64,000 nt of DNA from Candidatus Caldarchaeales archaeon (GCA_039630055.1 JBCNVN010000001.1:75410-139409); one strand, 5' to 3'. Shown: positions 2,898 through 29,414, numbered from the stretch's first letter. Numbers and translations are program-made. The notes: generated from the sequence alone by a model not told the origin.

Positions 2898-2907
2898 AAT
2901 TTTATGA
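2898..2907 (+). promoter_or_regulatory. putative TATA box for herA-like gene
   Basis: 'AATTTTATGA' about 28 nt upstream of the ATG at 2932, in the 500-bp divergent priS/herA intergenic region. Confidence 0.25.
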
Positions 2908-2931
2908 AGGTCTGATAAGAATAATCTTGAG

Positions 2932-5853: not shown

Positions 5854-6008
5854 ATTACTCCAATAGAATTCCATATTTTGAAACTAGTTAGATCTCCTCT
5901 AAGAGGGATTAGAATCATCATAAAGAGTAGTATGAATGTTTTACCACACATCCATCGAGACGTAAAAAGATATATCATGCTACTAGCTATCTTCTAGCTA
6001 GAGTTAAT

Positions 6009-6848
6009 ATGCTATTAGGAGCACACGTCTCCATATCTGGAACGATCGATAAGGCTGTAGAAAGAGCCCACGAGTTAAAATGTACTACATTCCAGATATT
6101 TACTAGAAATCCTAGAGGATGGAAAGCGAAGAAGTTACAAGATGAAGAGATTGAAGAATTTAAGAGAAAGATGAAAGAATATAACTACTCTATGGCGGTC
6201 TCACATATGCCATATCTTCCAAACATCTCATCACCTCTCCAACAGACATACAAGAAATCTCTATCTTCTCTCATAGAAGAATTGGAGAGAACAGGTGAAC
6301 TTGGGCTCAAGTATCTGGTCGTTCATATCGGCAGCCATCTGGGGAAAGGTCTCGATTCAGGTATTAGGAAGGCGGCTGAATCCGTCAATATAGCTCTGGG
6401 TAAAGTAGATAATGATGTGATGGTACTATTAGAGAATATGGCTGGACAGAAGAATAGTGTAGGATCCAGATTTGAAGATATAAAGAGAATACTCAACTTG
6501 ATAGAATATCCAGACAGGGTTGGAGTATGCATCGATACATGTCACGCATATGCTGCTGGATACGATTTAAGGACTAGAGAAGCTATAGAGAATACTCTGA
6601 GAGATTTCGATGAGATAATAGGTTTAGAACTATTGAAGGTATTGCATATAAATGATTCTAAAGGAGATCTTGGAAGCCATCTAGATAGACATGAACATAT
6701 AGGTTTGGGAAAGATTGGAGAACAAGGTTTTAGAGAACTCTTCCACAACAAGCATATTAGAGAACTTCCACTGATCCTTGAGACACCCGTAGACTCTAGA
6801 GGAAATTTTGCATCAAACCTTGCTAAATGTAGAGAACTCTATCTATAA
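6009..6848 (+). CDS. nfo: endonuclease IV (AP endonuclease family 2)
   Basis: 279 aa. 'LLGAHVSISG' N-terminus, 'LVVHIGSH', 'LENMAG' and 'CIDTCHAYAAGYD' metal-binding motifs of the Nfo/xylose-isomerase-like TIM barrel. Confidence 0.85.
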   Translation: MLLGAHVSISGTIDKAVERAHELKCTTFQIFTRNPRGWKAKKLQDEEIEEFKRKMKEYNYSMAVSHMPYLPNISSPLQQTYKKSLSSLIEELERTGELGLKYLVVHIGSHLGKGLDSGIRKAAESVNIALGKVDNDVMVLLENMAGQKNSVGSRFEDIKRILNLIEYPDRVGVCIDTCHAYAAGYDLRTREAIENTLRDFDEIIGLELLKVLHINDSKGDLGSHLDRHEHIGLGKIGEQGFRELFHNKHIRELPLILETPVDSRGNFASNLAKCRELYL

Positions 6849-6862
6849 TCGATGTGTAAGAG

Positions 6863-7297
6863 ATGAAGAATCCTAACAAATTATTTATCAAGATATGGAA
6901 GAAGCTTTTCTCACCAGAGTTCTTAAAGTTTAATATAGTTGGAGGGGTCGGGATAGCTGTAAATATGTTCTCATATGTACTGCTGAACGATCTTCTACAC
7001 ATACACTACATGCTCTCTGGAGCCTTATCGACAGAGATCGCAATAATCAATAATTTTGTATTGAATGATTTATGGACTTTCAGAAATAGGAATAAAAGGA
7101 TGAATCTTTGGGTTAGAGCCGGGTTATTCCATGCTTCACGTCTTATCGGTATGTTTGCAACCCTCAGCATATTCTTCATATTAGTAGATATATTTAAAAT
7201 GAATGATGTCTTAGCATACTTTTTCGCTATAGGAGTAGGAGTATTGGTAAATTTTTACACTAGTGATGTTTATGTATGGTCAGAGCGGAAACTTTAG
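6863..7297 (+). CDS. GtrA-family small membrane protein
   Basis: 144 aa with four predicted TM segments. 'FNIVGGVGIAVNM...NNFVLNDLWTFRNR' is typical of the GtrA family. Confidence 0.55.
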   Translation: MKNPNKLFIKIWKKLFSPEFLKFNIVGGVGIAVNMFSYVLLNDLLHIHYMLSGALSTEIAIINNFVLNDLWTFRNRNKRMNLWVRAGLFHASRLIGMFATLSIFFILVDIFKMNDVLAYFFAIGVGVLVNFYTSDVYVWSERKL

Positions 7298-7865
7298 AAG
7301 GTAGATGTACCTTCTCGATAGAAACGCTCAAAGTAGCCATTACTCCAAGCTTATCTAACGTTAACGCTATGATATAGCCTATTACCGAGCCTGGTATTGA
7401 GCTAGCAGCCCAACCAGCCCAGAAGACTGGTAGAAGATTTAGGACGCCCTCCCTCTCCATCAATCCAAGAAGTCTTACATCTCCTATCAATGGAGCTAAG
7501 ATTAGTAATGAGAAGGTTCCACCTATCAAGACCGTTCCAACAGGTTCTAAGAATGCTGCAGAATATTTTACAAATCTATTTCTCGACTTTCTCGTAAAGA
7601 GATATCCAAGTCCCACGAGTATTCCACCCGGTATCCCTCCTGGAAAAGCGTATAGCGTTCCTATCCCTAGCATATTTCTTATAGAGCCGATGAATATTGC
7701 TGCCATGGCAGCCCACCATGGCCCGATAGTTATACCGCTCATCACATTTATAAAATGCTGTGTTGGATAAGCTTTAGTCGTAATAAATTGGAACCAGAAG
7801 AATGGTGCTAATGAGACGCCGAGAGCTGTGAAGACAGCTAATAAAGCAATCTTCTTAGTCTGCAC
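7260..7865 (-). CDS. ECF-transporter S-component-like membrane protein (ThiW/BioY-type candidate)
   Basis: 201-aa polytopic membrane protein rich in Gly and aromatics. Resembles vitamin-specific ECF S components. Several thiamine-pathway genes are nearby. Confidence 0.3.
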   Translation of the reverse strand: MQTKKIALLAVFTALGVSLAPFFWFQFITTKAYPTQHFINVMSGITIGPWWAAMAAIFIGSIRNMLGIGTLYAFPGGIPGGILVGLGYLFTRKSRNRFVKYSAAFLEPVGTVLIGGTFSLLILAPLIGDVRLLGLMEREGVLNLLPVFWAGWAASSIPGSVIGYIIALTLDKLGVMATLSVSIEKVHLPSKVSALTIHKHH

Positions 7866-8078
7866 TTAAACCACTAATTCTATTCTAACTCTTAAAGATC
7901 TTTATAAATGATAGTATAAGCATCTTATATTTCTATTAAAAGTATGTTAAGAAAATGGGAGACTATAGTTCGTGATAATTGAAGATTCTAAGATACATCA
8001 TCCATGCTAGAGTACCGATGAAATCTTCGATACACATCGCAATATTCTTACATTGGTGAAAGAATTATTATTGATGGT

Positions 8079-9404
8079 ATGGCTAAGAAGAAAGTAATAA
8101 TCATGGGTGCAGCTGGGAGAGATTTCCATAACTTCAACATGTATTTTAAGGATAATCAAGATTATGAGGTCATCGCATTCACATTCTCCCAGATACCTGG
8201 GCTGAGTTATAGATCTTATCCACCTGAGCTGGCTGGTCCAAACTATCCTGAAGGCATACCCATATACCCTGAAGAAATGTTGGTAGAATTGATCAAAAAA
8301 TACAATATTGATCTAGTGGTCTTATCATATAGCGATCTAACCCATGAAGATGTTATGCATAAAGCTTCTCAAGTAATAGCTGCAGGAGCAGATTTCATGC
8401 TTCTAGGTCCGAAGAATACTATGCTAGAGCCCACCCTACCAACCATCGCGGTTACGGCCGTCCGAACTGGTGCTGGAAAAAGCACGGTTGTAAGAAAGAT
8501 CGCCTCTATATTGAAGAAGTGGAATATTAGATTTAACATAGTTAGACATCCGATGCCTTATAGTAGGATACTCAGACATCGTGTACAGAGATTTAGCTCG
8601 TTTGAAGACTTAGATAGATACGAGTGTACAATAGAAGAGAGAGAAGAGTATGAACCTCACCTAGAGATGGGAAATACAGTTTATGCAGGGGTAGATTATA
8701 GAGAAGTTTTAAGAGAAGCCTCGATAGGTGTAGACGTCCTGGTCTGGGATGGTGGAAATAACGACTTCCCATTCTTTAGACCTTCTTTAATGATATCGGT
8801 TGCAGATGCTCTTAGACCAGGTCAGGAAGTCTCAGCATATCCAGGAGAAGTAAATATTAGAATGGCCGACGTAGTAGTAATAAATAAAGTGAATGCAGCA
8901 GATCCAGACAGCGTTAAGACTATAGAAGAAAATATAATGAGATTGAATGAGAGAGCGATAATCATAAAAGCATCCTCGAGGCTCTATGTTCCAGATCCTA
9001 AAATTATTGAAGGGAGAAGGGTTCTTGTAGTAGAAGATGGTCCAACCGTTACCCATGGGGGGATGAGCTATTCTATCGGAATGCTCGCCGCCAAAATGTA
9101 TGGTGCTAGAGAAATAATAGATCCGAGAGATTATGCGGTCGGATCAATTAAGGAGGTTTATAGTATATACACTCATATCGGCCCCGTCCTTCCAGCTCTA
9201 GGATATAGTAGAGAACAGATAGAAGAACTCCGAGAGACTATTAGAAGAATCGATTGTGATCTTATCATCCTTGGAACACCGATAAATCTGGGAAGATTAA
9301 TGAATCTTGATAAACCATGTTTGAAAGTAAGATATGAGCTTGAAGAGATATCTAAGCCAGACCTTGAAGATGTATTAAAGAATTCTGGAATATTGAGGGG
9401 TTGA
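8079..9404 (+). CDS. P-loop protein of the cyclic 2,3-diphosphoglycerate synthetase-like (COG2403) family
   Basis: 441 aa. N-terminal Rossmann-like 'KVIIMGAAGRDFHN' and central P-loop 'AVRTGAGKST'. Domain order resembles archaeal cDPG synthetase. Assigned from memory of the family, not from a search. Confidence 0.35.
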   Translation: MAKKKVIIMGAAGRDFHNFNMYFKDNQDYEVIAFTFSQIPGLSYRSYPPELAGPNYPEGIPIYPEEMLVELIKKYNIDLVVLSYSDLTHEDVMHKASQVIAAGADFMLLGPKNTMLEPTLPTIAVTAVRTGAGKSTVVRKIASILKKWNIRFNIVRHPMPYSRILRHRVQRFSSFEDLDRYECTIEEREEYEPHLEMGNTVYAGVDYREVLREASIGVDVLVWDGGNNDFPFFRPSLMISVADALRPGQEVSAYPGEVNIRMADVVVINKVNAADPDSVKTIEENIMRLNERAIIIKASSRLYVPDPKIIEGRRVLVVEDGPTVTHGGMSYSIGMLAAKMYGAREIIDPRDYAVGSIKEVYSIYTHIGPVLPALGYSREQIEELRETIRRIDCDLIILGTPINLGRLMNLDKPCLKVRYELEEISKPDLEDVLKNSGILRG

Positions 9405-16013: not shown

Positions 16014-18188
16014 TCAACCTATCATTGTCAACTGTTTCTCCGTATACTTTAATACTTCTCTCATCCGTTCATACTCTCTTATCATCTGTGGAGATAAACT
16101 AGGCTTAACAGTTCTCAATGCTTCTTCAAAATCTTCTTTAGAAACATACTCAGCCTCAATATTCTTTCTGAGAGCGCTTAGAGCTGCTTCTCTACATACG
16201 GATTCAAGGTCTGCACCTGAGTATCCTTCTGTTCTAGCAGCCAGCTCTCTCAAGTTTACATCATTGGCCAAGGGCATCCTTCTAGTATATATCTTGAATA
16301 TAGAGAATCTGGCCTTTTCATCTGGTGGCGGGACGTATATTAGCCTATCTAGTCTTCCAGGTCTAAGAACTGCTGGATCTATCAGGTTAGGCCTGTTTGT
16401 CGCTCCTATAACTATTACATCTGCTAGTTCTTCTACTCCATCCATCTCTGATAGAAGCTGGCTTGAGACCCTGTTCGTTACACCTGAAGAATCATCTAAC
16501 AGATCTTTCCTAGGTATAATTGATTCGATCTCATCGAAGAATATTATACATGGAGATGCTTGCTTGGCTTTTCTAAATATCTCTCTCACAGCTTTCTCAG
16601 ATTCTCCTACCCATTTACTGAATATCTCTGGACCTTTAACAGAGATGAAGTTAGCTTCAGACTCTGTGGCCACAGCCTTAGCCAGTAGAGTCTTACCACA
16701 TCCTGGAGGGCCATAGAGTAGTATGCCTCTAGGAGGCTTTATATCAAACTTCTCAAATTTTTCAGGATATTTTAACGGCCACTCAACCGTCTCGACGAGC
16801 CTCTGCTTCAATTCTTCTAATCCACCTATATCCTCCCATCTAACATTTGGAACCTCTATCTCTACCTCCCTCAACGCCGTCGGCGTTATCTCTTTGAATG
16901 CATCTAAGAAATCTCTCATAGTAACCATCAAGCTGTCAAGGATTTCAGGAGATATCCTTTCTTCATTAAAATCTATGCTGGGAAGTATCCTTCTAATAGC
17001 TTTCATAGCAGCTTCTCTACATAGAGCCGCTAGGTCGGCTCCCGTATATCCTCTAGTCATCTCTGCCAGCTTATCTATCCTCACATCCTCAGATAGAGGC
17101 ATACCACGAGTATGTATCTGGAGTATCTCTCTCCTACTATTCTTATCAGGTATACCTATCTCTATCTCTCTATCAAATCTTCCAGGCCTCCTTAATGCCG
17201 GGTCTAGTGCATTAGGCCTATTCGTTGCACCTATAACTATTACTTGTCCTCTAGTCTCGAGCCCGTCCATTAATGTTAGAAGCTGAGAGACAACCCTCTT
17301 CTCAACCTCTCCTGTAACCTCACTCCTCTTAGGAGCGATAGCATCGATCTCATCGATGAAGATGATGCTTGGAGCTTCTTCCTCAGCTTTTCTAAATATC
17401 TCTCTCAGCCTCGCCTCGGTCTCCCCATAATACTTATTCATGATCTCTGGACCATTTATCAAGATGAAGTTTGCCTCCGCCTCTGTTGCAACAGCCTTTG
17501 CTAATAGTGTTTTACCACATCCTGGAGGACCATATAATAGTACCCCTTTAGGTGGCTCGATACCGAGCTTCTGGAATAGTTCAGGATATCTGAGTGGTAG
17601 CTCTATCATTTCTCTTATCCTCTGTATCTGTTCTTGTAGACCACCTATATCCTCATAAGTTACACTCGTTCTGAAGGTCTTCTCTTGGATTACCTTACTA
17701 TGTATTACAAGCTTTGTCTTAGGGGTTATTTTTACAACCCCAGCAGGTCTTGTCTGGATCACGGCGAAGGTGAATAGGTTCCCGAAGAATAGTACTGGAA
17801 CCACATTTTTCTGTACTAGTGGATATTCTATAAGGCGACTCTTGATAAGCCTGGTAAAATTCTCATCGGATTTAATAGTAGTATTTACAGGTGCAAGCAC
17901 TACTAATTGAGCTTCTTTTACATCTGCTTTACGGATAGTGACCCAGTCATTTAATGCTACTCCCGCATTACTCCGAATATATCCATCGATCCTGATAACA
18001 TCTTTCTCATCTTCGAGATAGCCTAGCCAAAGAGTTGCAGCCGCAAGCTTCTTACCTCTAATCTCCACCATATCCCCTGTCTGGAAGCCGGCATTCGAAC
18101 CTACTTCTCTATCTATTCTAGCTATACCATAGCCTACATCTCTCTGTCTAGCTTCAGCGACTCTTAGCCTAAGTTCCCTAGGGCTCAT
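16014..18188 (-). CDS. cdc48: CDC48/VCP-like AAA+ ATPase (two AAA domains)
   Basis: 724 aa. N-domain followed by two Walker A motifs 'GPPGCGKT' and two 'VIGATNRPN' second-region-of-homology motifs. Confidence 0.9.
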
Positions 18189-18279
18189 CCAAGATCTAGA
18201 ACATTAAATCCTCTATTTAAACGAGTGTCTTAAACAAATATGAAGTTTCAATACTCTTTACGGGGATCGTAATTCTATA

Positions 18280-18546
18280 TCATAGTCTGCTAATTCCTGA
18301 TATATCTATCTCTCCCACTTCTTCAAACTTCTTTAGATATTCTTCTAACTTTGAAGGGTATCCTTCTTCATCAGGCATGGTAAACATGGCGTTTATTATT
18401 TTGAGCCCGTAGACGAAAGGCTCCACCCTCACCGATACCATTTCTATCCTCTCAGGAAGGTCTGTTCTTATCCTTGAGATTAAGTCGTCTGTATCTACCT
18501 TCTCATCCACCGGCATTATCTTGACTATTACTGCTACCTTGCCCAT
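18280..18546 (-). CDS. ef1b: translation elongation factor 1-beta (aEF-1beta)
   Basis: 88 aa. Typical archaeal EF-1beta length and the 'VAVIVKIMP...' beta-alpha fold signature. Confidence 0.75.
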   Translation of the reverse strand: MGKVAVIVKIMPVDEKVDTDDLISRIRTDLPERIEMVSVRVEPFVYGLKIINAMFTMPDEEGYPSKLEEYLKKFEEVGEIDISGISRL

Positions 18547-18549
18547 ACC

Positions 18550-18747
18550 TCATGGCCCCTCGAAGCCACATGATGGACATGAATAAGGTCTAGAAAGCTC
18601 TCTACACAGTCTACATCTCCATATCCGGACTCTGCCACAGTTAGGACATGGAAAATTTACTGCAGGCTCACCAGGTGCAACAGGCTTATTACATGAACTG
18701 CAGACTACCGTCTTCTTACTCATAAAGTCTTCTAAATGTTTCCTCAA
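18550..18747 (-). CDS. Zn-ribbon protein conserved next to ef1b
   Basis: 65 aa with four CxxC pairs 'CSSCN...CPNCG...CRLCR...CPSCG'. Zn-ribbon neighbours of ef1b are conserved in archaea. Confidence 0.6.
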
Positions 18748-18812
18748 TATAAAGCCATCCTAATGAGAGAAGTTATTAAGAAGAATCTTAAGATTTTCTT
18801 GTGAGGATCGTC

Positions 18813-18984
18813 TTTGGGCATAAGAGAATTTATTAAGGATTCGCTAACACTCTTTAAACTAGCTAGAAAGCCTGCGAGGAATGAATTTCTCCTCGCCTTA
18901 AGGATAACCCTACTCGGAGTAGGCATCATTGGGGTCATAGCATTTATTATAAGGTTTGTAGCTCTTGCTATCCAAGGAGTTTAG
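18813..18984 (+). pseudogene. secE: preprotein translocase SecE (Sec61-gamma), apparently interrupted by a +1 frameshift in a T-run
   Basis: TTG start at 18813 gives 'MGIREFIKDF' then stop at 18855. A +1 frame from 18841 gives 'SLTLFKLARKPARNEFLLALRITLLGVGIIGVIAFIIRFVALAIQGV*', a typical SecE TM segment. Deleting one T in GATTTCG (18837-18843) fuses the two into a 56-aa SecE. Confidence 0.45.
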
Positions 18985-18994
18985 GGGGATCGAG

Positions 18995-19498
18995 ATGTCT
19001 TCGGGTACTCCAAGATATTTTGCCGTAAAAGTAACGGTAGGGCAAGAAAGAAACGTGGCAAAGATCGTTGAAAGCAAAGTTATCAGAGAGGTTGTGGAGG
19101 ATGGTAAAACCGTCAAGGTTGAGAGGATAGTTGAAGGCATATACTCTATTATTGCATTGCCAAACATTAAAGGCTACATATTCATAGAAGCTGATAGTAG
19201 AGAGAAGGTCTCACTAATAACTCAAGGGATAAGACATGTAAAATCTAGACCCGCTATATTGGTAAAGAAAGAAGAGATAATGCAACATCTTATAGAGAAG
19301 CCGATGATCGAGATGATCTCTATTGGAGATATGGTAGAGATCGTTTCAGGGCCTCTAAGAGGAATATACGGCAAAGTCTTAAGGATCGATAAACCAAAGA
19401 ATGAGGTAACGATAGAGCCTACAGATGCTGCCTTCCCCCTACCTATCTCTATCCCTGCAGACCAAGTAAGGATAGCTCAACAATCGGAAAGGAGGTGA
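18995..19498 (+). CDS. spt5: transcription elongation factor Spt5 (NusG homologue)
   Basis: 'RYFAVKVTVGQERNVA' NGN domain and C-terminal KOW 'GDMVEIVSGPLRGIYGKV'. GGGGG Shine-Dalgarno-like run upstream of the 18995 ATG. Confidence 0.85.
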   Translation: MSSGTPRYFAVKVTVGQERNVAKIVESKVIREVVEDGKTVKVERIVEGIYSIIALPNIKGYIFIEADSREKVSLITQGIRHVKSRPAILVKKEEIMQHLIEKPMIEMISIGDMVEIVSGPLRGIYGKVLRIDKPKNEVTIEPTDAAFPLPISIPADQVRIAQQSERR

Positions 19499-19502
19499 CC
19501 TA

Positions 19503-19982
19503 ATGCCTCAGAAGACTGTTAGATTCATAGTTCAAGGAGGTGAAGCAACAGCAGGCCCACCGATCGGGCCTTCACTCGGTCCACTAGGTGTAAATGTTCT
19601 CCAGATCGTTGAAGAAATAAACCGGGTTACTTCAGAGTTTAAAGGGATGAGGGTTCCAGTAGAGGTAACAGTGGATACAGGTACAAAAGATTTCAAAGTT
19701 ACTGTGGGTATACCTACAACTACAGCCTTGATAGTGAAAGATGCAAAGATAGAGAAAGGTGCTAAGATGCCTGGAAGAGAGACTGTAGGTCAAGTCAGTC
19801 TCGAGCAGGTTATAAAAATAGCTAGGATGAAGATGGATGATATGCGTGCTAAGAGCTTGAAGACTGCTGTAAAGCAAGTTCTAGGAACATGTTTAAGTAT
19901 GGGGATATTGGTAGATGGTAAAAGTCCGAAAGAAGTCTTGAGAGAGATCGACTCCGGTCTTCACGATGAAAGATTGAAGTAG
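19503..19982 (+). CDS. rpl11: 50S ribosomal protein L11
   Basis: 159 aa. 'VQGGEATAGPPIGPSLGPLGVN' L11 signature. Confidence 0.9.
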   Translation: MPQKTVRFIVQGGEATAGPPIGPSLGPLGVNVLQIVEEINRVTSEFKGMRVPVEVTVDTGTKDFKVTVGIPTTTALIVKDAKIEKGAKMPGRETVGQVSLEQVIKIARMKMDDMRAKSLKTAVKQVLGTCLSMGILVDGKSPKEVLREIDSGLHDERLK

Positions 19983-20084
19983 CTTATGCGAAATTGAACC
20001 ATGAGGGATAGATCCGGAATATAGGTTGGAATACTTCAAGGTATGTTTAAATTAATCCTCTAGCCCTCAACCTTTAGAGAGGTT

Positions 20085-20741
20085 ATGCTTAAGAGTTTAG
20101 AAGCAGACTTGGCAACAGCTATCGAAGAAGCTAAGAAGAATGGAAAGCCTAGAAAATTTGAGCAGAGTATAGAGTTGATTATAAATATAAAAGGGTTAGA
20201 TTTGAAGAAGGCTGAGAATAGGTTCGTGGAAGATATAGAGCTTCCGAACAGTCCAATAGGTGGAAGAAAGATCTGTGTAATAGCTGGAGGTGCGCTAGCC
20301 TCTGAATCTAGGAAGATAGGAGAGGTTAGTAGAGTTATAGAGAGAGATGAGCTGGAATCGCTTATCGGTAACAAGAGGATAGCGAAGAAGGTCGCCTCAC
20401 AGTATGATTACTTTCTAGTTGATCCACCTCTGATGGGTTTAACGGCTAAGGCTCTTGGAGCTGCTCTAGGAGGAAGAGGTAAGAAGCCTGTCCCTATACC
20501 TCCAGGATCAAGTATAAGCGAACTCGTTAAGAAGTATAGTCGGATGGTTACGGTAAGTGTTAGGAAGAATCCTCAAGCTATGTGCGCGATAGGTACTGAA
20601 AGTATGGAGACTAGAGCCCTCGTAGAAAATGCTCTAGCGGTAATCTCTAAAGTCTCAGATAGATTAGAGAAGCATTTCAAGAATATAAAATCAATATATG
20701 TTAAGAAGAGTATGGGTAAGCCTATCAAGATAACACTTTAA
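20085..20741 (+). CDS. rpl1: 50S ribosomal protein L1
   Basis: 218 aa. L1 fold motifs 'QSIELIINIKGLDLKK', 'KICVIAGG'. Confidence 0.9.
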   Translation: MLKSLEADLATAIEEAKKNGKPRKFEQSIELIINIKGLDLKKAENRFVEDIELPNSPIGGRKICVIAGGALASESRKIGEVSRVIERDELESLIGNKRIAKKVASQYDYFLVDPPLMGLTAKALGAALGGRGKKPVPIPPGSSISELVKKYSRMVTVSVRKNPQAMCAIGTESMETRALVENALAVISKVSDRLEKHFKNIKSIYVKKSMGKPIKITL

Positions 20742-20812
20742 AGATAAAAATCATCTCTCAGAGTATAGTTAGAGAAAGTTTATCAACTTACATGTTGATG
20801 TAGATCTAGAAC

Positions 20813-21430
20813 TTGAAGCAGAAGTTGGGATTAAAGATCTCAAAGATCTTGATACGTAATAGTGATTGTAGAGTTGTAAGGTGGTTGGAGAGTAAAGGGG
20901 TTGAAGCAGAATTTAAGATTGTTAAGATAAGTGAGAATACTTCTACACATCTATTAAGATTTCCCAAACCGATAGAGTTTGACAAACAGATGGATATCCA
21001 TGGTTCATACATGGTCTTGCCAGGCAACTATCTCTGGATAAATACAGAAAGCTGTACAGCATGTAGAACCTTCTCAAAACTACCTGTAATAATGAGATCT
21101 ATATCATATGCTAAATCCTCAGGCATTATCGTAAGATTAATAGTTCCAGGGAGATTATTTCATAGACAGCTTATAGAGTGCTTAGAGAATTCTGGTCTAG
21201 AAGTAGAATCAATCTCGATCAGAGAATATGAAGATTATGAGTTGACTGAAAGACAGATGGAGGTTCTCATAACGGCCTTAAAGTTAGGATATCTAGGAAG
21301 TAGGAGAAGCGCAAAGCTGAAAGACATAGCATCCTTTATAGGCTCAGATCCCTCTACAGTCTCACGGATTATTAGAGACGGCATCAAAAAGATAATAAAA
21401 AGAACTTTAGATGAAGAACATATTTATTAG
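20813..21430 (+). CDS. HTH_10 (Bat-type) family transcriptional regulator
   Basis: 205 aa. C-terminal 'LTERQMEVLITALKLGYLGSRRSAKLKDIASFIGSDPSTVSRIIRDGIKKI' matches the HTH_10 DNA-binding domain. Inserted between rpl1 and rplP0. Confidence 0.5.
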   Translation: MKQKLGLKISKILIRNSDCRVVRWLESKGVEAEFKIVKISENTSTHLLRFPKPIEFDKQMDIHGSYMVLPGNYLWINTESCTACRTFSKLPVIMRSISYAKSSGIIVRLIVPGRLFHRQLIECLENSGLEVESISIREYEDYELTERQMEVLITALKLGYLGSRRSAKLKDIASFIGSDPSTVSRIIRDGIKKIIKRTLDEEHIY

Positions 21431-21486
21431 TATATCATACAACATTTTGTATGAAAATATTATCTTTAATCATGAATAAACATTAA

Positions 21487-22065
21487 TTGATGGCACCCCA
21501 GATAATTATAGAAGTAGTCTATCTTGTAATAATATCGATAGTCATAGGGTTCATTATAGTCTTCTACATATTGACTCAGAGAGGTAAGAGTAGAGGTCAG
21601 AATTCAAGTGGTGAAGAGCATGGGATAAAGAAGGGTATGGAGAAAGGAGAGAAACGATGGCTGGTCTTCTTATTCATAATAGCTTTGATCGGAAATATGG
21701 TGATGCTGTCTCCACTTCTCCCATCTACGAGATACACTTTATGGTTAGAAGAAAAACCAAAATTAACGATAAAAATAGAAGTGATAAACTATGAATTTAT
21801 ACTTCCTGAAAAGCCTATAACTATCCCAGCAGGTACTCCAGTAGAGTTTATAGTAGTATCTCAAGACCTAGTATATGGTTTCGGGGTATTCAGAAAGGAT
21901 GGGCTCATGGTATTCCAGATGCAGGTGGTTCCTAAACCATATGAAAATCGAATAGTATGGGTATTCGATGAGCCTGGGTACTATGATATAAGGTCTACAG
22001 AATATAGTGGTCCTAAGCATCCCTACATGTATGTTCCCGATGCAATAAAAGTAGTGGGAGGATGA
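21487..22065 (+). CDS. heme-copper oxidase subunit II-like cupredoxin protein lacking CuA ligands
   Basis: 192 aa with N-terminal TM helices then a cupredoxin-like domain. In place of the CuA motif 'H..C.E.C..H..M' it has '...VYGFGV...RSTEYSGPKHPYM': both Cys are Ser and the first His is Tyr, as in quinol-oxidase-type subunit II. Confidence 0.5.
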   Translation: MMAPQIIIEVVYLVIISIVIGFIIVFYILTQRGKSRGQNSSGEEHGIKKGMEKGEKRWLVFLFIIALIGNMVMLSPLLPSTRYTLWLEEKPKLTIKIEVINYEFILPEKPITIPAGTPVEFIVVSQDLVYGFGVFRKDGLMVFQMQVVPKPYENRIVWVFDEPGYYDIRSTEYSGPKHPYMYVPDAIKVVGG

Positions 22066-22071
22066 GAATGT

Positions 22072-23640
22072 ATGAATGAAGAAGAGAGGAAGGTTCTCTC
22101 GATAAGGTTTGTAGTGATCTCATTGATCTTCTTAGCATTAGCTGGGATTGAAGGAATACTGATGAGGTTTAGAATAGTAAATACTCTTGTAGAACTCTTT
22201 GATGAAAAGCATTTCTACTCTATGATGACAGCCCACCCATTTATCGGAGTATATGGATGGGCTTATATGGCTGTTATGGGTGCATTCTACTTTCTCGTAC
22301 CCTATATTCTCAAGAAAGATATCTACAGTAAGAAGGCTGCATACTTGAGTTTCTGGCTGATGATTATAGGTTTGGCAACTGTCTGGACAACTACATTTTT
22401 AACTCATTATGCACCCCTCTACACTCTCTACTGGCCTATACCGGTGGCATACGATATAATTGGATGGAACATATACTCTATACTCTCTTTTGGTTTAGGT
22501 GTCGCATTGATCTTAGGAGGTGTACTCACATTCTTTGGGAACATGTTTGCTACAATATTCCTATCTCAGCGGCAGACAGATGGAGGATCTGCCAGCCCAT
22601 GGTACATAATCAAAGAACTAATTATAACAGCATTCAATCTAGATAAGGTTAGGGCAAATATACTAAGACTACCGCAATATACTTCGAAGGCCTTCAGTTA
22701 TCCAGTCTTTGTTGTAGCCGTTTTTAGAGGATGTGTAGATACGACATTAAACGCGTTTGTTATAGGAGGTGTAGGAGTACTCTTGATAGTGTTTGCTATA
22801 GGAAACGTGATCCCGAATCTTTCTATATCCCATACTATACTAGATCCATTAATATACAAGAATATCTTCTGGTGGGGGCTAGACCTTATAGCTGATGGGA
22901 ACGTCCTCATCTTCACCGCTGGAACATGGTATCTTCTCGTACCACTACTACTCAATAGGACTTTATACGGAGAGAGTGTTGTGAGAACTGTTATCCTTGC
23001 AGACCTTGTAATCTCTCTCTTCGTCTGGAATCACCATATGCTGGCAGATACTCCTCAGCCCTTAGCTCTACAGATACAAGGTCAGATATTCACTTGGGGA
23101 GAGCTGCTGACGATGGGGTTGACAATGTTCGCTGTTCTAGCAACGATATGGTATGCGAGACCTGTAAAATATTCTATGCCCTTGAAGTTTATTCTCGTAT
23201 CTATTGTAGGATATGCTGTAGGTGGTTTAGCTGGAATAATACAAGCGAACTATGCATCAAACAGATTCTTCCATAATACTCAGTGGGTTATAGGGATCCA
23301 TGGACATATACAACTGCTTGTAGGGTTATCTTCAACTCTGTTTGCAGCGGTTTATGCTCTCTTCCCATTACTTACAGGTAAGTCGCTTAGTGAAAGATTG
23401 GGAAATGTTCATTTGATACTCTGGACTGTTGGTGGACTGGTGATGGGATTAAGCATGGGGTTGGCTGGAACACAGGGGATGTTGAGGAGAACTCTCTACC
23501 CGATGGGATTAGGACCTTTCGAACCATATATGAACATAGCGATCATAGGAGCTTTGATGATGGCAACGGCCTTCATAATCTTCCTTGTAAATATCATTAG
23601 AACGGTAAAGCTTGGCAACCTACTAAAGATACTCTTTTAA
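22072..23640 (+). CDS. heme-copper oxidase subunit I-like protein with incomplete binuclear-centre ligand set
   Basis: 522 aa with about 12 TM helices. Conserved 'TAHPF' (helix II His), 'VWNHHML' (His-His), 'IGIHGHI' (helix X His-X-His) are present. The helix VI 'FWFFGHPEVY' region reads 'FWWGLDLIADGNV', so the CuB His and the cross-linked Tyr are absent. Confidence 0.65.
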   Translation: MNEEERKVLSIRFVVISLIFLALAGIEGILMRFRIVNTLVELFDEKHFYSMMTAHPFIGVYGWAYMAVMGAFYFLVPYILKKDIYSKKAAYLSFWLMIIGLATVWTTTFLTHYAPLYTLYWPIPVAYDIIGWNIYSILSFGLGVALILGGVLTFFGNMFATIFLSQRQTDGGSASPWYIIKELIITAFNLDKVRANILRLPQYTSKAFSYPVFVVAVFRGCVDTTLNAFVIGGVGVLLIVFAIGNVIPNLSISHTILDPLIYKNIFWWGLDLIADGNVLIFTAGTWYLLVPLLLNRTLYGESVVRTVILADLVISLFVWNHHMLADTPQPLALQIQGQIFTWGELLTMGLTMFAVLATIWYARPVKYSMPLKFILVSIVGYAVGGLAGIIQANYASNRFFHNTQWVIGIHGHIQLLVGLSSTLFAAVYALFPLLTGKSLSERLGNVHLILWTVGGLVMGLSMGLAGTQGMLRRTLYPMGLGPFEPYMNIAIIGALMMATAFIIFLVNIIRTVKLGNLLKILF

Positions 23641-23828
23641 GATATCTAACCCTCAAACTTCATATTTTTCAGTTATATTTAGACTAGTTACTATAAAGTA
23701 ACTCTGAAAGTTAAGAGATGAATATTTAAGATCTTTAGAGTCCTATCCTACAACACTTTAAGTTTTTTAACTAGGTGAAAGTATAGACAGACTGAGTTAG
23801 TAGAGTTTAAAGGAGTGTTGGTTTAGAC

Positions 23829-24698
23829 TTGAATGGACAGACCGTGATCTCGAGGGTGCAGAGATGGAAGATTGAAGAAGTCGAGGAATTGGCAAGTTTA
23901 ATCGGAAAGCATCGAGTAATCGCTGTCTTTAGTTTATCCGGCTTGAGAACAAACCTAATACATGAGATTCGGAAGAAGCTTAGAGGCTTCTGCACTATAA
24001 GAGTTGCAAAAAAGACCCTCTTTATCAAGGCCGTAGAGCGGGCGGGTAGAAAAGATCTGGCTAAGCTTGTAGAAGATATTAAAGAAAGCGTTGGGTTCAT
24101 ATTCTCAGATCTTAACATATTCAAGCTTAAAATGCTGCTGGATAAGAATAAGGTACTCATGCATGCTAAAGCAGGAGAGAGATCAGATATAGATGTAATA
24201 GTGCCTGAGATGAATACTGGACTTCCTCCGGGACCTATCTTGAGCGATTTCGGAAAGTTAAAGATACCTACGAGGATCGAGGGAGGTCAGATATGGATCG
24301 CTAAAGATACTCTAGTAGCTAAGAAAGGTGATGAAATATCAGCTCCTCTGGCCTCACTTCTATCAAGGCTTGATATAAAAGCGGTGATGAAAGGGATAAC
24401 GATCGATAAAGGCTATGAAGATGGAGTGATATTATCTGGAAAAGACCTTGAATTAGATCTAGAGATGTTCAAGAATAACATTATAGAGGCCAGTAGCACA
24501 GCCATGAAGTTAGCGTTAGAGATAGGATATGTAACAAGAGAGACTATACAGCCTCTAATAATCAAAGCATATAGAGAGGCTAGGTCTCTCGCAATTGAAT
24601 CAGGGTTCCCAGATAAAGAAGTGATAGGAGAGATGATTATCAAGGCTGAAGTAATAGCTAGAAGGCTGGAAGAGTTGATAGAGGCTAAGAGGACCTAA
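23829..24698 (+). CDS. rplP0: 50S ribosomal protein L10 (acidic ribosomal protein P0)
   Basis: 289 aa. 'VFSLSGLRTNLIHEIRKKLRG' P0 N-domain. Ends '...RRLEELIEAKRT' with no acidic C-terminal tail. Confidence 0.8.
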   Translation: MNGQTVISRVQRWKIEEVEELASLIGKHRVIAVFSLSGLRTNLIHEIRKKLRGFCTIRVAKKTLFIKAVERAGRKDLAKLVEDIKESVGFIFSDLNIFKLKMLLDKNKVLMHAKAGERSDIDVIVPEMNTGLPPGPILSDFGKLKIPTRIEGGQIWIAKDTLVAKKGDEISAPLASLLSRLDIKAVMKGITIDKGYEDGVILSGKDLELDLEMFKNNIIEASSTAMKLALEIGYVTRETIQPLIIKAYREARSLAIESGFPDKEVIGEMIIKAEVIARRLEELIEAKRT

Positions 24699-24709
24699 CC
24701 CTCTATTGA

Positions 24710-27475
24710 TCACTTGGCCAATATCTGGATGATTAGATCGTTGACAGTTTTTCTTAAATCTTCTTCATCGACATCTCTTCCCAAGTTTCCCTGACCAAGC
24801 CTAGATTGTCCACCACCCTTTCCACCAAGCTTTGATGATATCGCATCGGCTAGTCGTCCAGCATGAATTCCTAGATCCTGAGCCTCTTCACTAGATACTA
24901 TAAGCAATTTTGGTTTCCCCACATCGAATGCTATCACGACGCATTTCGGACCCTTTTTCTCCATCAATATATCCGAGATCATGAATGCATAATCCCTATC
25001 ACCCTCTACTTCCCTGGCTACAAATACTTCGATCCCCCCGATTATAGACCGTCTATCGAATAATTCTTGAGCTCTATATTTTGCAACCATTCTTTCAAGC
25101 GAGTTGATCTTCCTCCTCAGTTCTTTAACCTGATCCAATTCTTCCTTTAACTTCTCTAAGATATCTACTGGAGATGATTTAAGAAGTATAGATGCCTCAT
25201 TTATTATTCTATCGTTTTCTTGGAGGTATGGTAAAGCTGATGGACCTGCAGCGAAGATGAGTCTTTCCACACCATCTTGTATTCTCTCCGTCTTCAATAT
25301 CTTTATCAATCCTACGTCTTCAGTGTTTTCACAGTGCATTCCACCACATGCTTCTACATCCCAACCTAATATCCCTACAACTCTAATCGTAGCAGAGGGT
25401 ACCTCGCCTCCTTGATATAGGGTGAATCCATAAATCCTCTCCGCCTCATTTCTATCCATCCACTTGATGACGACCGGTATCCTACTCATAACGATCCTAT
25501 TCGCTTCCCTCTCTATCTTCTCAATATCTTCTCTGGTCAACCTCTTATGATGGTATATGTCTAATCTAGCTTTATCTGGTTCCTTCTCTGCACCGGCTTG
25601 CCAAGCATGCTTACCTAAGACCCTTCTCGCAGATCCCAGAATTATATGTGTGGCAGTATGGTGTCTCATCAATGTAAGCCTCCTCTCTCTGTCTAACTCT
25701 GCATCTACTATGGTTCCTACCTCTGGTGTAGGACCCTCGATCTTATGGAGAATTACACCACCACTCAATAGACTGGTCTCGACAACTCTTGCTTGATTAT
25801 TTTGACCCCATCTTATGAAACCTATATCGGTGGCTTGACCTCCTCCAGTAGGATAAAACAATGTCTGATCGAGAATTACATAATTATCTAGAACGCCTAT
25901 GACCTTTGCCCTGAACTTGAACTCAAAAGGTTGCTCATAGTACAGCTTCCTCGTTGGAGGATAGTTTTTCACTCTTTCCTCTAGAATTTTGAGCTCATCA
26001 TGGATTGGAGGTTCAATGGATCTGAGATGTCGTGATGCTACAAGCTCATAGAAGTTCTCGGGGACCGATATTTTTACATCTTCTCTTTCAGCGATCTGTC
26101 TTACAAAATCGGGGGTGAGCCCTCTCTCATCATACATTCTAACCAAGAAATCTACTGGAACCTCTCCATGACTATCCTTCAACCGCTTGATCTCTCTCTC
26201 AACATAAGTAGCTCCACGGAAGATTGTCTCTTTAAACTTCTTTATCTCAGACTCTATTATCTCGAGAGCTTCATCCCTCATCTCTATGAGATGTGGAAAA
26301 TCCTTTCCCCAGAAGTTTAGCTGTAGATCTACCAGCTCGAGCAGTTTATCAGATGAAGATATGGAGTCTATCAGTCTGTATGCCTTCCTAATCAGTAACC
26401 TTGCTAGATAGCCTACCTTTACATTTGATGGTACAACCCCCTCACTTATTATAAATGCTATAGACTTTGTGTAATCAAGTAGTGCATAGACTTTCTCCAG
26501 TGCTGCTATCTCCTCCTCTATAAACCTGAGGGGGATCTCAGATTTTTCTGATATTAGTCTCCTCACTTCAGAGATCGTTTGTCCAGACTTTGGGATGACG
26601 AGAGCCGTATATGGTGAGTATCTCTCGAGAAGCTTTCTATCAGGCTTAGGGAATGGTAGGATCTTCTCAATCCTCGGATAGAGCTCACCATATACTGCAT
26701 CGAAGCAGCTGGGTGTTCCTTGGCTGAACCATGCAAACCTCTCGATGCCATAACCTGTATCTACAGTTCTTATCGGTAGCTCTATCAACTCGCTATCAAG
26801 TGTCTTATACTGCATAAAGACGAGTGTTGCTAACTCTAGTCCATAAGAGATGGTTTCAAAGCATGGTCCAGCATTTCCGCCACCACTCCAAACAGACTCT
26901 TTGTAGACTATCTGATCTTCAGGTATGCCGAATTCCTCCATAACATATTCATGATAATATCTTACTGTATCCTCTTTCCAGTAGATCTCCTTGTCTGGAT
27001 AGTTGAATGCATGGGCTCCACCCATCTCGAATATCGTTAGATGTCTTCCGAAAGTTAATCCAACCTTGTCTATGTCTACCAGTCTTATACATGGCTGACT
27101 AATTACTAGGGGGTTGGCTGGGGGTGGGGCTATTCCAGAAGTCACGAAGGGTTGGAAGTCTACGATGCTAGCATCGGTTAAGAACATGTCGGTCCTCCAT
27201 CTAGCAACGACTGGATATGGCTTTATCACTGTATGACCTCTCTTCTCGAAGAATCTGAGAAAGGTCTCTCTAGAACCTTTAACGTCAACCTTCTTCTTTG
27301 CTAGACTTCTACCGATAAATTTGTATTCTTCACAAGGTGACTCTCCACAGACTTCTCTATCTAGATCGACTGTCCAAAAATATTCTCCACAATACTTACA
27401 TCTTCTTCTGACGTAACCTCTCTCTTTAAAGAATTCTAGACTATAAACTTCTTCGCTGAACCTCATACCATCCAT
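24710..27475 (-). CDS. alaS: alanyl-tRNA synthetase
   Basis: 921 aa. Class II catalytic core, editing-domain 'HTATH' and 'CGGMH' zinc motifs, and a C-terminal DHHA1-like domain. Confidence 0.9.
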   Translation of the reverse strand: MDGMRFSEEVYSLEFFKERGYVRRRCKYCGEYFWTVDLDREVCGESPCEEYKFIGRSLAKKKVDVKGSRETFLRFFEKRGHTVIKPYPVVARWRTDMFLTDASIVDFQPFVTSGIAPPPANPLVISQPCIRLVDIDKVGLTFGRHLTIFEMGGAHAFNYPDKEIYWKEDTVRYYHEYVMEEFGIPEDQIVYKESVWSGGGNAGPCFETISYGLELATLVFMQYKTLDSELIELPIRTVDTGYGIERFAWFSQGTPSCFDAVYGELYPRIEKILPFPKPDRKLLERYSPYTALVIPKSGQTISEVRRLISEKSEIPLRFIEEEIAALEKVYALLDYTKSIAFIISEGVVPSNVKVGYLARLLIRKAYRLIDSISSSDKLLELVDLQLNFWGKDFPHLIEMRDEALEIIESEIKKFKETIFRGATYVEREIKRLKDSHGEVPVDFLVRMYDERGLTPDFVRQIAEREDVKISVPENFYELVASRHLRSIEPPIHDELKILEERVKNYPPTRKLYYEQPFEFKFRAKVIGVLDNYVILDQTLFYPTGGGQATDIGFIRWGQNNQARVVETSLLSGGVILHKIEGPTPEVGTIVDAELDRERRLTLMRHHTATHIILGSARRVLGKHAWQAGAEKEPDKARLDIYHHKRLTREDIEKIEREANRIVMSRIPVVIKWMDRNEAERIYGFTLYQGGEVPSATIRVVGILGWDVEACGGMHCENTEDVGLIKILKTERIQDGVERLIFAAGPSALPYLQENDRIINEASILLKSSPVDILEKLKEELDQVKELRRKINSLERMVAKYRAQELFDRRSIIGGIEVFVAREVEGDRDYAFMISDILMEKKGPKCVVIAFDVGKPKLLIVSSEEAQDLGIHAGRLADAISSKLGGKGGGQSRLGQGNLGRDVDEEDLRKTVNDLIIQILAK

Positions 27476-27509
27476 CTAGTGACAACTACTTATAGATAAA
27501 AATAATCCT

Positions 27510-27857
27510 CTAACCAAAGAGAGCGCTTAATCCTGCTAAAGCCTCTTCTTCTCTCTCTTCTTTCTTCTCTTCTTTCTTTTCAGCTGGTTTTACTTCTGGA
27601 GCAGGAGCCTGGGCCGCAGAGCTCGGACCTGCCGATATTATAGGAGTAGCTGAAGCCGACTTCAAGACTTCTTCAATATTGATCTCTGAAACTGCTGCTA
27701 CTAGAGATTTAATCCTAACTTCATCTGGAGTGATCCCGGCGGCTGATAGGACCCTCTTCACATTCTCTTCATTAATCGGCTTACCAGCCTTGTGGAGAAG
27801 TAAGACTGTATATATGTACTCCATCTCTAGTCTAACATAGTCTAGGTTAGCCTGCAT
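27510..27857 (-). CDS. rpl12: 50S ribosomal protein L12 (P1 stalk protein)
   Basis: 115 aa ending in the hallmark stalk tail '[20 protein letters not shown]'. Confidence 0.85.
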
Positions 27858-27980
27858 TTAAAGATTATCCAGACCACCATTTTATACATCTCTATTTAAT
27901 CGAGAATAGTTAGCCCTCAAATTTTTGTGAATATTGAATAGTAATATCGTATATAAACTGGACCTAGTCTATAGATTGGC

Positions 27981-29414
27981 ATGGATCGGGAAGGCTATAG
28001 GGTTGAGAGAGATTTATTTGGAGAGGTCCTGATACCTGTAGAAGCATACTATGATACTAGCACTGTCAGAGCAATAGAGAATTTTCCAATATCTGGATTG
28101 AGATTTCCTAGAGCTTTCATAAGAGCTTTAGGATTGATAAAGTATTCCGCTGCTAAGGTCAATCTAAAGCTAGGACTATTGGATAGAGATAGAGCTGAAG
28201 CAATAATGAGAGCAGCTCTCGAGGTTGTGGATGGAAGATACGATGATCAGTTTGTCGTTGACATATTCCAAACAGGTTCAGGTACATCGACAAATATGAA
28301 TGCAAACGAGGTTATAGCTAATCGAGCTGCAGAGTTGTTGGGTGGAAAAAAGGGAGATAAGAAGCTAATACATCCAAATGACCATGTAAATATGTGTCAA
28401 TCGACAAACGATGTGTTTCCCACCGCTATCCACATCTCGGTAGCTGAAAGTATTATCAAGATGCTGCTACCCAGCTTGAAGATTTTGGAAGAATCTTTAA
28501 GGATGAAGGCTTCGGAGTTCGAATCGATTGTAAAATGTGGTAGAACCCATCTACAGGATGCTGTCCCGATAACGCTTGGACAAGAGTTCAGTGGTTACGC
28601 ATCTATGATTAGACATGGGATCCAGAGGCTGGAGAGGAATATGGAAGAGATATTAGAGCTACCTATAGGTGGAACAGCGGTTGGAACAGGCTTAAATGCT
28701 CATCCAGATTTTGGAAGAATGGTTGTAGAAGAGATTAGCAATATCACCAACATTATGTTCAAGGTCTCTGAAAATAGATTTGAACAACTCCAGCTTAGAG
28801 ATTCTTGTGTTTCAATAAGTGGATGCTTGAGAACAATAGCTGGAAGCATATTGAAGATTATTAGAGATTTGAGACTTCTCAGCTCTGGACCGAATACCGG
28901 GCTTGGAGAGATAGAAGTACCGGCCACACAGCCAGGCTCATCTATAATGCCTGGAAAAGTTAACCCTGTAATACTTGAGAGTTCTATGCTTGTATGTGTA
29001 AAGATCTTTGGAAGTGATCTGACGATCGCACTCTCGAACCAGCTTGGAGAGCTTGAACTCAATATGGGTATGCCTCTAATCGCATATGAATTGCTCGAAT
29101 CGATCCGACTACTATCTAACATGTCTAAGAATTTAGCTGTCAAGTGTATCAATGGATTGAGGGCAAACGTTGAGAGATGCCGTTACTATGCAGAGGTTAG
29201 CCCAGCTCTAGTAACAGCATTGACTCCTATCATCGGATATGATAGAGGAGCATTGATAGCTAAAAAAATCGTAGATGAGAAGAAGACTATAACACAAGCA
29301 TTGATAGAGGAAGGATATTCAGTCGATGATTTGAAGGATGTAATAGATCCGTTAAGGTTGACTAAGGGTGGGATAATCTCAAAGACCTCTATCAAGAGAG
29401 GGGAAAGCCTTTAA
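27981..29414 (+). CDS. fumC: class II fumarate hydratase / aspartate ammonia-lyase family enzyme
   Basis: 477 aa. Signature 'GSSIMPGKVNP'. 'TNDVFPT' and 'HLQDA' motifs of the fumarase/aspartase superfamily. Confidence 0.8.
   Translation: MDREGYRVERDLFGEVLIPVEAYYDTSTVRAIENFPISGLRFPRAFIRALGLIKYSAAKVNLKLGLLDRDRAEAIMRAALEVVDGRYDDQFVVDIFQTGSGTSTNMNANEVIANRAAELLGGKKGDKKLIHPNDHVNMCQSTNDVFPTAIHISVAESIIKMLLPSLKILEESLRMKASEFESIVKCGRTHLQDAVPITLGQEFSGYASMIRHGIQRLERNMEEILELPIGGTAVGTGLNAHPDFGRMVVEEISNITNIMFKVSENRFEQLQLRDSCVSISGCLRTIAGSILKIIRDLRLLSSGPNTGLGEIEVPATQPGSSIMPGKVNPVILESSMLVCVKIFGSDLTIALSNQLGELELNMGMPLIAYELLESIRLLSNMSKNLAVKCINGLRANVERCRYYAEVSPALVTALTPIIGYDRGALIAKKIVDEKKTITQALIEEGYSVDDLKDVIDPLRLTKGGIISKTSIKRGESL

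Follow-up and report, generated by a model that had tools for sequence, protein, structure and literature searches.

How did three non-ribosomal genes come to lie between the ribosomal protein genes rpl1 and rplP0, and what do they encode? The question is raised by a 64,000-nt stretch of a Candidatus Caldarchaeales archaeon (GCA_039630055.1, JBCNVN010000001.1:75410-139409), called the window throughout and numbered from its first nucleotide. The cassette at 20813 to 23640 comprises genes for an HTH_10 regulator, a subunit II-like protein and a COX1-family protein of the heme-copper oxidase (HCO) superfamily. An earlier note on this DNA had described such a cassette on the strand of its ribosomal neighbours, and had proposed either an insertion event or co-regulation of a respiratory-type module with the ribosomal stalk genes. 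The listing of open reading frames (ORFs) and Pfam searches confirmed the description: rpl1 is followed on the + strand by the regulator, subunit II-like and COX1-family ORFs and then by rplP0. We consider it probable that the cassette is an autonomous module of the gNOR type, equipped with its own regulator, which landed in a gap between operons and has no coupling to the ribosomal genes.

The subunit I and subunit II pair

Subunit I has both the 12-helix core fold and the COX1 profile of the HCO superfamily. The profile match spanned residues 10-496, and the AlphaFold2 model (predicted local distance difference test score, pLDDT, 82) gave Foldseek template-modelling (TM) scores of ~0.8 against solved structures of subunit I. 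Of the six canonical histidines, five are retained and invariant, namely H55 in helix II, H321-H322 in helix VII and H410/H412 in helix X. The sixth, the CuB histidine of helix VI, was replaced throughout the alignment of 16 sequences and in 87/87 loci. Oxidases carry W-x-x-G-H-P-E/I-V-Y in this helix, whereas the window protein reads W267-W-G-L-D271-L-I-A-D275-G. The pattern WWGLDxxADG was invariant in the 16 aligned homologues, which come from archaea and bacteria and are 49-86% identical, and again in the 87 loci; these were taken from species-representative genomes and were found with the WWG part of the motif, the LDxxADG part having had no role in finding them. An ungapped register would put D271 at the position of the CuB histidine and D275 at that of the cross-linked tyrosine. 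No redox-active tyrosine was found at the helix-VI position, which holds D275 or G276; a helix-VII tyrosine of the C-family type was not specifically looked for. The NCBI pipeline names subunit I homologues 'cbb3-type cytochrome c oxidase subunit I', which is misleading when metagenome-assembled genomes (MAGs) are called aerobic or anaerobic. Weak ccoN matches were limited to the N-terminal 100 residues of subunit I.

The middle ORF matched Pfam COX2 weakly (0.033). In ~85 related loci its gene always accompanied the COX1 gene on the upstream side, and the protein is laid out as two N-terminal transmembrane helices followed by a cupredoxin domain without CuA. It contains no cysteine at all: DLVYGF and RSTEYSGPKHPYM stand in place of DxxHxF and CxExCGxxHxxM, so that a CuA histidine is replaced by tyrosine in the former and two cysteines by serine in the latter. 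These changes were found family-wide except in one locus, L023 (labels L001-L096 denote homologous loci of other genomes). Searches of the cassette proteins with Pfam and NCBIfam found no heme c domain. L023 belongs to a Thermofilaceae MAG (JALURH010000216.1, 1713-3815) and encodes a gNOR-like subunit II with all CuA ligands (DVTHGF ... RCTEYCGFRHSEM), next to a subunit I that nonetheless carries the gNOR motif WWGLDLVADG. This pair may represent a variant of the family that bears CuA and depends on a cytochrome or a cupredoxin, or else an intermediate in its evolution.

Hemp and Gennis 2008 is said to be a source for the gNOR family beside Murali et al. 2024. The published hallmarks are an aspartate replacing the active-site histidine, absence of the catalytic tyrosine and a cupredoxin subunit II without CuA, and gNOR is the sole HCO family described with all of them (Murali et al. 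2024, PMC11214002). Because the invariant D271 (in the ungapped register), the missing tyrosine and the CuA-less cupredoxin subunit fit this published family, we filed the pair as gNOR-type. Judged by these described features and by 44-64% identity to proteins of gNOR-carrying phyla, rather than by a reference alignment or tree, this is the most likely assignment; the subunit I homologues concerned are a Methylomirabilota protein (64%) and a Campylobacterota MAG protein (44%). The family is regarded as a putative quinol-dependent nitric oxide (NO) reductase of Bacteria and Archaea, mostly from sulfidic settings (PMC11214002). It is listed for Sulfurimonas, Sulfurovum and Persephonella (Table A4, PMC8756737), and in Ca. 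Methylomirabilis oxyfera it corresponds to Damo_1118-1119 (PMC6094997). The superfamily calls of the earlier note for the regulator and the pair were thus upheld by profile search. The oxidase type was not, there being no helix-VI histidine, no tyrosine and no CuA.

The host is a Caldarchaeales (Aigarchaeota) MAG near Ca. Geocrenenecus. Its subunit I is identical to a database record from a "Candidatus Caldarchaeales archaeon" MAG, and the closest species representatives by this protein are Ca. Geocrenenecus dongiae (87%), Aigarchaeota MAG SKYB24 (86%) and Ca. G. huangii (84%). These matches also set aside the earlier placing of the host among Thermoprotei. Geocrenenecus is a genus of the Wolframiiraptoraceae, anaerobic, fermentative thermophiles of sulfide-rich springs that are strictly anaerobic where cultivated (PMC9246946).

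Quinol is the presumed donor, because subunit II lacks CuA and no heme c domain was found. Electrons from membrane quinol would enter at a low-spin heme (H55/H412) and pass to the binuclear site, predicted to consist of a high-spin heme (H410) and a non-heme metal on H321, H322 and the aspartate D271, possibly with D275, in place of the third histidine. We infer that the reaction there would be 2 NO + 2 e- + 2 H+ -> N2O + H2O. In an anaerobic fermenter of sulfidic springs the role would most likely be NO detoxification.

The public 'cbb3-type' name implies instead a true O2-reducing terminal oxidase in a micro-aerobic host. The strong Pfam match (2e-61), the five kept histidines and the fold similarity to oxidase subunit I agree with that, as does the previous reading of Aigarchaeota HCOs as markers of aerobiosis (PMC6053391). 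The helix-VI histidine and the cross-linked tyrosine are, however, regarded as needed for O2 reduction in HCOs (PMC11214002), and both are missing from 87/87 family members. With CuA and a heme c domain absent as well, all NCBIfam oxidase models scoring the cassette proteins far below their cut-offs, and a host family strictly anaerobic where cultivated, we regard an oxidase as very improbable. Another possibility accepts the family but not the substrate: the Asp/His2 metal site would take some other small oxidant, or the enzyme would serve a scavenging role. gNOR is biochemically uncharacterised, with NO reduction a prediction of the literature (PMC11214002), and Ca. Methylomirabilis has gNOR yet yields little N2O (PMC6094997). 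No nitrite reductase (nir), nar, nos or other N-oxide gene was found in the annotated parts of the window; among the ten downstream genes a Pfam search for N-oxide enzymes returned none, only fumarase, a major facilitator superfamily protein, glycosyltransferase, AIR-synthase-like, aminotransferase, DUF255 and glyoxalase genes. Against this stands the fact that every other assayed tyrosine-less HCO family is an NO reductase (PMC11214002), and the linked regulator resembles regulators of N-oxide respiration, though at family level only. We therefore consider a substrate other than NO, or a scavenging role, unlikely. Assignment to gNOR with NO as substrate has to carry the missing assay and the missing N-oxide genes just named, and some further points tell against it too. 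In the HMMER register, from alignments to PDB structures, L270 lies opposite the CuB histidine and D271 is adjacent to it, although in both registers neither histidine nor tyrosine occupies the helix-VI site. Profile scores against solved structures favoured A-type quinol oxidases (1e-27) over ba3 (3e-15), whereas in the literature gNOR lies near the B family. Ca. M. oxyfera was absent from the 80 loci listed by the genome scan, which was dominated by Chloroflexota.

The regulator and its candidate operator

The regulator carries a C-terminal HTH_10 domain (residues 144-196) that matched the Pfam profile over its full length (1-53/53). The AlphaFold2 model (pLDDT 81) has two tandem beta-alpha-beta-beta-alpha-beta subdomains preceding the HTH_10 helices. 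The N-terminal part is modelled as a ferredoxin/ACT/HMA-like fold with a CxxC at a beta1-alpha1 junction. The residues of interest are C19, H46 and C81-x2-C84, which form a Cys-x61-CxxC motif plus histidine. A profile search with the regulator recovered 77 representative clusters at E<1e-10 and 539 at E<1e-3. Among 40 full-length representatives (20-33% identity), C19, C81 and C84 were invariant and H46 was present in at least 90%. The gNOR pair has a gene of this family as its neighbour, upstream, downstream or divergent, in Scotarchaeum, Geothermarchaeota, Thermofilaceae and other Thermoproteota MAGs. Recurrent flanking in divergent lineages and in varied orientations is the pattern expected of a functional link between regulator and gNOR. 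In the Ca. G. huangii representative (L014, 4679-5344) an in-frame stop at 5033-5035 interrupts the regulator gene, which reflects either a sequencing error or a pseudogene; the gene is intact in L003-L005, which are of the same type.

A perfect 16-nt palindrome, ATACAAcattTTGTAT, lies between the regulator stop and the subunit II start, directly upstream of the candidate promoter of the pair. Its core pattern is ATRCAA-N4-TTGYAT. The palindrome occupies the same place in all cassettes of the clade, including the relocated G. dongiae copy described below. In most variants a change in one arm is matched in the other (ATGCAA...TTGCAT), G. dongiae being mixed (ATGCAA...TTGTAT), and G. huangii-type copies have a GTGCAA variant at this position. 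The strict 16-nt pattern gave one match in each of 7 loci and none in the other 88, and the palindrome was absent upstream of gNOR pairs that lack a window-type regulator. In the window the core matched twice, against 0.21 expected. The second match, TACAACTGCTTGTA at 23309-23322, lies inside the subunit I coding region and is probably a chance occurrence.

Short Bat-family HTH_10 proteins of haloarchaea, NarO and DmsR, activate genes of anaerobic respiration, and the Haloferax nirK, nor and nos promoters share the semi-palindrome CGAAYATDKTYG, mutation of which makes the nor and nos promoters less active (PMC11218638, PMC10062603). By analogy, a dimer of the window regulator would bind the ATRCAA-N4-TTGYAT palindrome, and the signal sensed at the Cys3-His site would be a metal, redox state or NO. 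On that signal the regulator would probably activate the operon of subunits II and I; an activator mode is suggested because the candidate site lies just upstream of the B recognition element (BRE) and TATA box. It is possible, and we propose it tentatively, that the ~205-aa Cys3-His HTH_10 proteins form an uncharacterised archaeal family of NO or redox sensors, with a metal or Fe-S site between the subdomains, which switches on a sulfide-tolerant quinol-dependent NO reductase through this palindrome, so that the cassette would be a portable NO-defence module.

Insertion site, history and transcription

The cassette was found at the rpl1/rplP0 site in L001/L002/L012, L003/L004/L005/L014, L015, L039 and L093, that is, in at least six species-level lineages, and subunit I of these relatives is 79-86% identical to that of the window. 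Because the same order recurs in independent MAGs and read-set assemblies, the arrangement is no assembly accident. In L094/L095, from a sister Aigarchaeota genus (L1 65% identical), secE-spt5-rpl11-rpl1-rplP0 is unbroken and the rpl1-rplP0 spacer measures 51 nt. L092 (GCA_038887275.1; L1 73%) likewise has no cassette, and there the rpl11-rpl1 block, lying between spt5 and rplP0, has the opposite orientation. One breakpoint of this L092 inversion (5307-8380) coincides with the insertion site of the cassette. In other Caldarchaeales and Nitrososphaerota, the II-I pair (73-77% identical) occupies unrelated loci and lacks a window-type regulator. In L013 (Ca. G. dongiae) and L096 (GCA_038868835.1) the whole three-gene unit lies beside amidohydrolase, M28 peptidase and ornithine/diaminopimelate (Orn/DAP) decarboxylase genes. 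Homology between the L013 copy and the window extends from a TATA-like TTTATC box, 34 nt ahead of the regulator start, to the subunit I stop codon.

From the shared site in relatives, the unbroken order in the sister genus and the unit elsewhere in G. dongiae we conclude that a movable unit was inserted in one lineage. The insertion event proposed by the earlier note is in this way borne out. The possibility that the arrangement is ancestral survives in part, since close relatives share a site that is old and fixed in the clade, but the family as a whole did not inherit it from its ancestor. A neighbour-joining tree was built for subunit I (bootstrap with rooted replicates). The dongiae-type copies were nested in it at 100% bootstrap inside a clade whose other members all have the ribosomal site, as does its sister L015; a ribosomal-site clade excluding them received 0%. 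The most parsimonious history is one insertion in the ancestor of the clade followed by one relocation of the block, on the assumption that the gene tree equals the species tree. The unit would have landed in an ancestor of the Geocrenenecus-level clade, in the spacer between two transcription units, after rpl1 and before the rplP0 promoter.

The continuous rpl11-rpl1-rplP0-rpl12 string expected by the earlier note holds for the orientation of rpl11, rpl1 and rplP0. It does not hold for rpl12, which is inverted together with alaS downstream of rplP0. Because this pair is inverted also in the cassette-free L094/L095, rpl12 became separated from rplP0 in an older rearrangement; L001-L005 share the layout, which recurred in every Wolframiiraptoraceae-like locus examined. 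One lineage of the clade shows a further change. In L039 (Nitrososphaerales archaeon KUA_Bin06, 1620-3987) rpl11 and rpl1 are separated by an inserted segment of 2.4 kb, which includes a DDE transposase fragment and, on the opposite strand, a gene resembling those of CPBP-type intramembrane proteases. The ribosomal cluster has therefore been interrupted more than once in this lineage.

Alignment of the three spacers across the clade revealed candidate signals for each transcription unit; we infer their promoter and terminator roles from sequence. The rpl1 stop and the regulator start, a conserved TTG codon, are 71 nt apart. The AAAGTTTATCAAC box in this spacer is conserved in the window, L001, L003 and L093, and its TTTATC core also in L013. 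A conserved block, TTATCTTTAATCAT, holds the TATA-like box before subunit II, at a distance from the start codon that matches the geometry expected of a leaderless archaeal transcript. The 188-nt spacer between subunit I and rplP0, aligned for five loci, contains two T-runs, the second in a block (CTTTAAGTTTTTTAACTAG) that is absent downstream of the G. dongiae cassette. The candidate rplP0 box of this spacer also occurs, as GTTTAAA, in the unbroken rpl1-rplP0 spacer of L094. The boxes, the palindrome and the T-runs of its own, together with its existence away from ribosomal genes, argue that the cassette is transcriptionally autonomous.

If the placement were functional instead, the cassette, or at least the regulator gene, would share a transcript with rpl11-rpl1 and/or rplP0, and its expression would follow ribosome synthesis, which is akin to the co-regulation with the stalk genes proposed by the earlier note. 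The shared strand and the retention of the arrangement in at least six species-level lineages fit this. So does the spacer upstream of the regulator, which is short and has no T5 run, so that read-through from rpl1 into the regulator gene is conceivable. However, the regulator, the II-I pair and rplP0 each have a TATA-like box of their own upstream, T5 and T6 runs follow subunit I, and the rplP0 box is present in a relative whose cluster is unbroken. The cassette, with box and palindrome, also stands beside the amidohydrolase gene in G. dongiae and GCA_038868835.1, and the pair stands elsewhere in other Caldarchaeales. Co-regulation thus found no support, and we consider a functional placement distinctly unlikely; the location would be a neutral outcome of insertion between operons. 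Recent horizontal acquisition as an island, or membership of a mobile element, would account for a block that moves within a genus and has ~65% identical homologues in Bacteria, and the L039 transposase fragment lies inside the ribosomal cluster. The deviating composition that this predicts was not seen: G+C content, G+C at third codon positions and codon-usage likelihood of the cassette lay inside the spread of 52 window genes (z -1.5 to +1.1), so the GC and codon-usage check suggested by the earlier note gave no deviation from the rest of the window. The borders showed only short, chance-level direct, inverted or att-like repeats, and no integrase, transposase or tRNA gene was found at them or in the unit. 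The nearest homologues are from Caldarchaeales and Nitrososphaerota (73-77%). Because the composition is native, terminal repeats and recombinase genes are missing and the site is common to lineages down to 79% subunit I identity, the insertion is old, and recent transfer is hardly credible. Against an autonomous unit with a single insertion and a later relocation it has to be counted that no T-run separates rpl1 from the regulator gene, that the conservation of the palindrome is partly due to shared ancestry, having been found within one closely related clade, and that the G. dongiae evidence covers the relocated cassette locus, the rpl1/rplP0 junction not being included.

Table. Features of the cassette and its flanks in the window
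Feature	Coordinates	Strand	Basis or remark
secE	18814-18984	+	Pfam SecE
spt5	18965-19498	+	Pfam Spt5-NGN/KOW
rpl11	19503-19982	+	Pfam Ribosomal_L11
rpl1	20085-20741	+	Pfam Ribosomal_L1 8e-43
secE-spt5-rpl11-rpl1 string	18814-20741	+	upstream context, outside the cassette
AAAGTTTATCAAC, TATA-like box ~31 nt before regulator start	20775-20787	+	candidate HTH_10 promoter
Movable unit	20779-23640	+	blastn, L013 copy against window, 76% nucleotide identity
HTH_10 (Bat-family) regulator, 205 aa	20813-21430	+	Pfam PF04967 6.7e-11
Perfect palindrome ATACAAcattTTGTAT, 16 nt	21437-21452		candidate operator, directly upstream of subunit II promoter
ATATTATCTTTAAT, TATA-like box 24-27 nt before subunit II start	21457-21470	+	candidate II-I operon promoter
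Subunit II-like protein	21487-22065	+	NCBIfam CoxB 3e-9, SoxA 1e-5; family alignment
HCO subunit I, most likely gNOR type, 522 aa	22072-23640	+	Pfam COX1 2.3e-61
T5 run 25 nt after subunit I stop	23665-23669	+	candidate archaeal terminator
Conserved CTTTAAGTTTTTTAACTAG block with T6 run	23756-23774	+	candidate terminator or upstream part of rplP0; invariant columns, five loci
TTTAAA box	23807-23812	+	candidate rplP0 promoter; conserved in five-locus alignment
rplP0 (L10/P0)	23829-24698	+	Pfam Ribosomal_L10 2.7e-20 and RL10P_insert
alaS	24710-27475	-	convergent with rplP0
rpl12/P1	27510-27857	-	convergent with rplP0

The spacer between subunit I and rplP0 was also searched for an extra small subunit gene, and none was found. 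An Rfam scan of 18000-28500 for leaders and riboswitches gave no meaningful match. A scan for bacterial-type promoters and terminators, which does not apply to archaea, returned fewer matches than shuffled sequences. Divergent from secE, on the minus strand, lie a zinc-ribbon ribosomal protein gene (18550-18747), of the aS21 type according to Pfam tags of the L001 orthologues, and a gene for EF-1-beta (18280-18546). These adjoin a CDC48-type AAA ATPase gene (16014-18188), an order kept in all relatives.

Significance and comparison with known systems

The enzyme adds to the predicted gNOR family a member from a new host group, encoded at an odd genomic place, so that its novelty is modest, and the placement is a real but fairly ordinary rearrangement. 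Reports of gNOR in Caldarchaeales, of its linkage to HTH_10 regulators or of a location in the ribosomal cluster were not found in the literature searched. The most interesting lead is the pairing of the regulator with its candidate operator. If the reading as an NO-defence module is true, the cassette offers a defined set of regulator, operator and enzyme for the first functional test of any gNOR. Coming from a thermophile, with a linked regulator and a candidate operator, it is a practical start for work on gNOR expression, structure and regulation. HCOs are routinely used to call Aigarchaeota aerobic. Recognition of the tyrosine-less, histidine-substituted gNOR type therefore removes the aerobic inference from this HCO for Geocrenenecus, and the window enzyme points instead to NO handling in an anaerobe. 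The ribosomal location in itself carries little weight. It shows the otherwise stable rpl11-rpl1-rplP0-rpl12 cluster eroding in Wolframiiraptoraceae, and the cassette at rpl1/rplP0 provides a clean synteny marker for the Geocrenenecus-level clade.

Compared with the archaeal secE-spt5(nusG)-rpl11-rpl1-rplP0-rpl12 cluster, the window keeps secE-spt5-rpl11-rpl1 intact with rplP0 downstream in unchanged orientation. It differs in that 2.86 kb of non-ribosomal genes part rpl1 from rplP0 and that rpl12 is inverted together with alaS. By description, the regulator resembles NarO of Haloferax volcanii and DmsR of Halobacterium in its C-terminal HTH_10 domain, the absence of PAS or GAF domains, a length of ~200 aa and linkage to genes of the anaerobic respiration type. 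Its N-terminal Cys3-His tandem ferredoxin-like domain is known from the model. The candidate site and the Haloferax CGAAYATDKTYG motif are both inverted repeats of 4-6 nt with a 4-nt spacer upstream of a nor-type gene, but the letters differ, RCAA-N4-TTGY in the window against CGAA-N4-TTCG in Haloferax.

Among enzymes of solved structure, the best-scoring relatives (1e-27) were the quinol oxidases, represented by B. subtilis aa3-600 (6KOB/6KOC), E. coli bo3 and Sulfolobus SoxAB. Subunit II of bo3 and aa3-600 lacks CuA like that of the window pair, for which quinol is likewise the presumed donor. The quinol oxidases, in contrast to the window enzyme, reduce O2, and they have lost neither the His-Tyr cross-link nor any of the three CuB histidines. 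The qNOR enzymes are also set apart, being single fused polypeptides with a His3Glu FeB site and related to the C family. With the gNOR family the window pair has in common the two-gene II-I operon, an aspartate at or next to the position of the replaced histidine, the absence of the tyrosine and the CuA-less cupredoxin subunit, as well as the sulfidic or anoxic habitat and a distribution over two domains of life.

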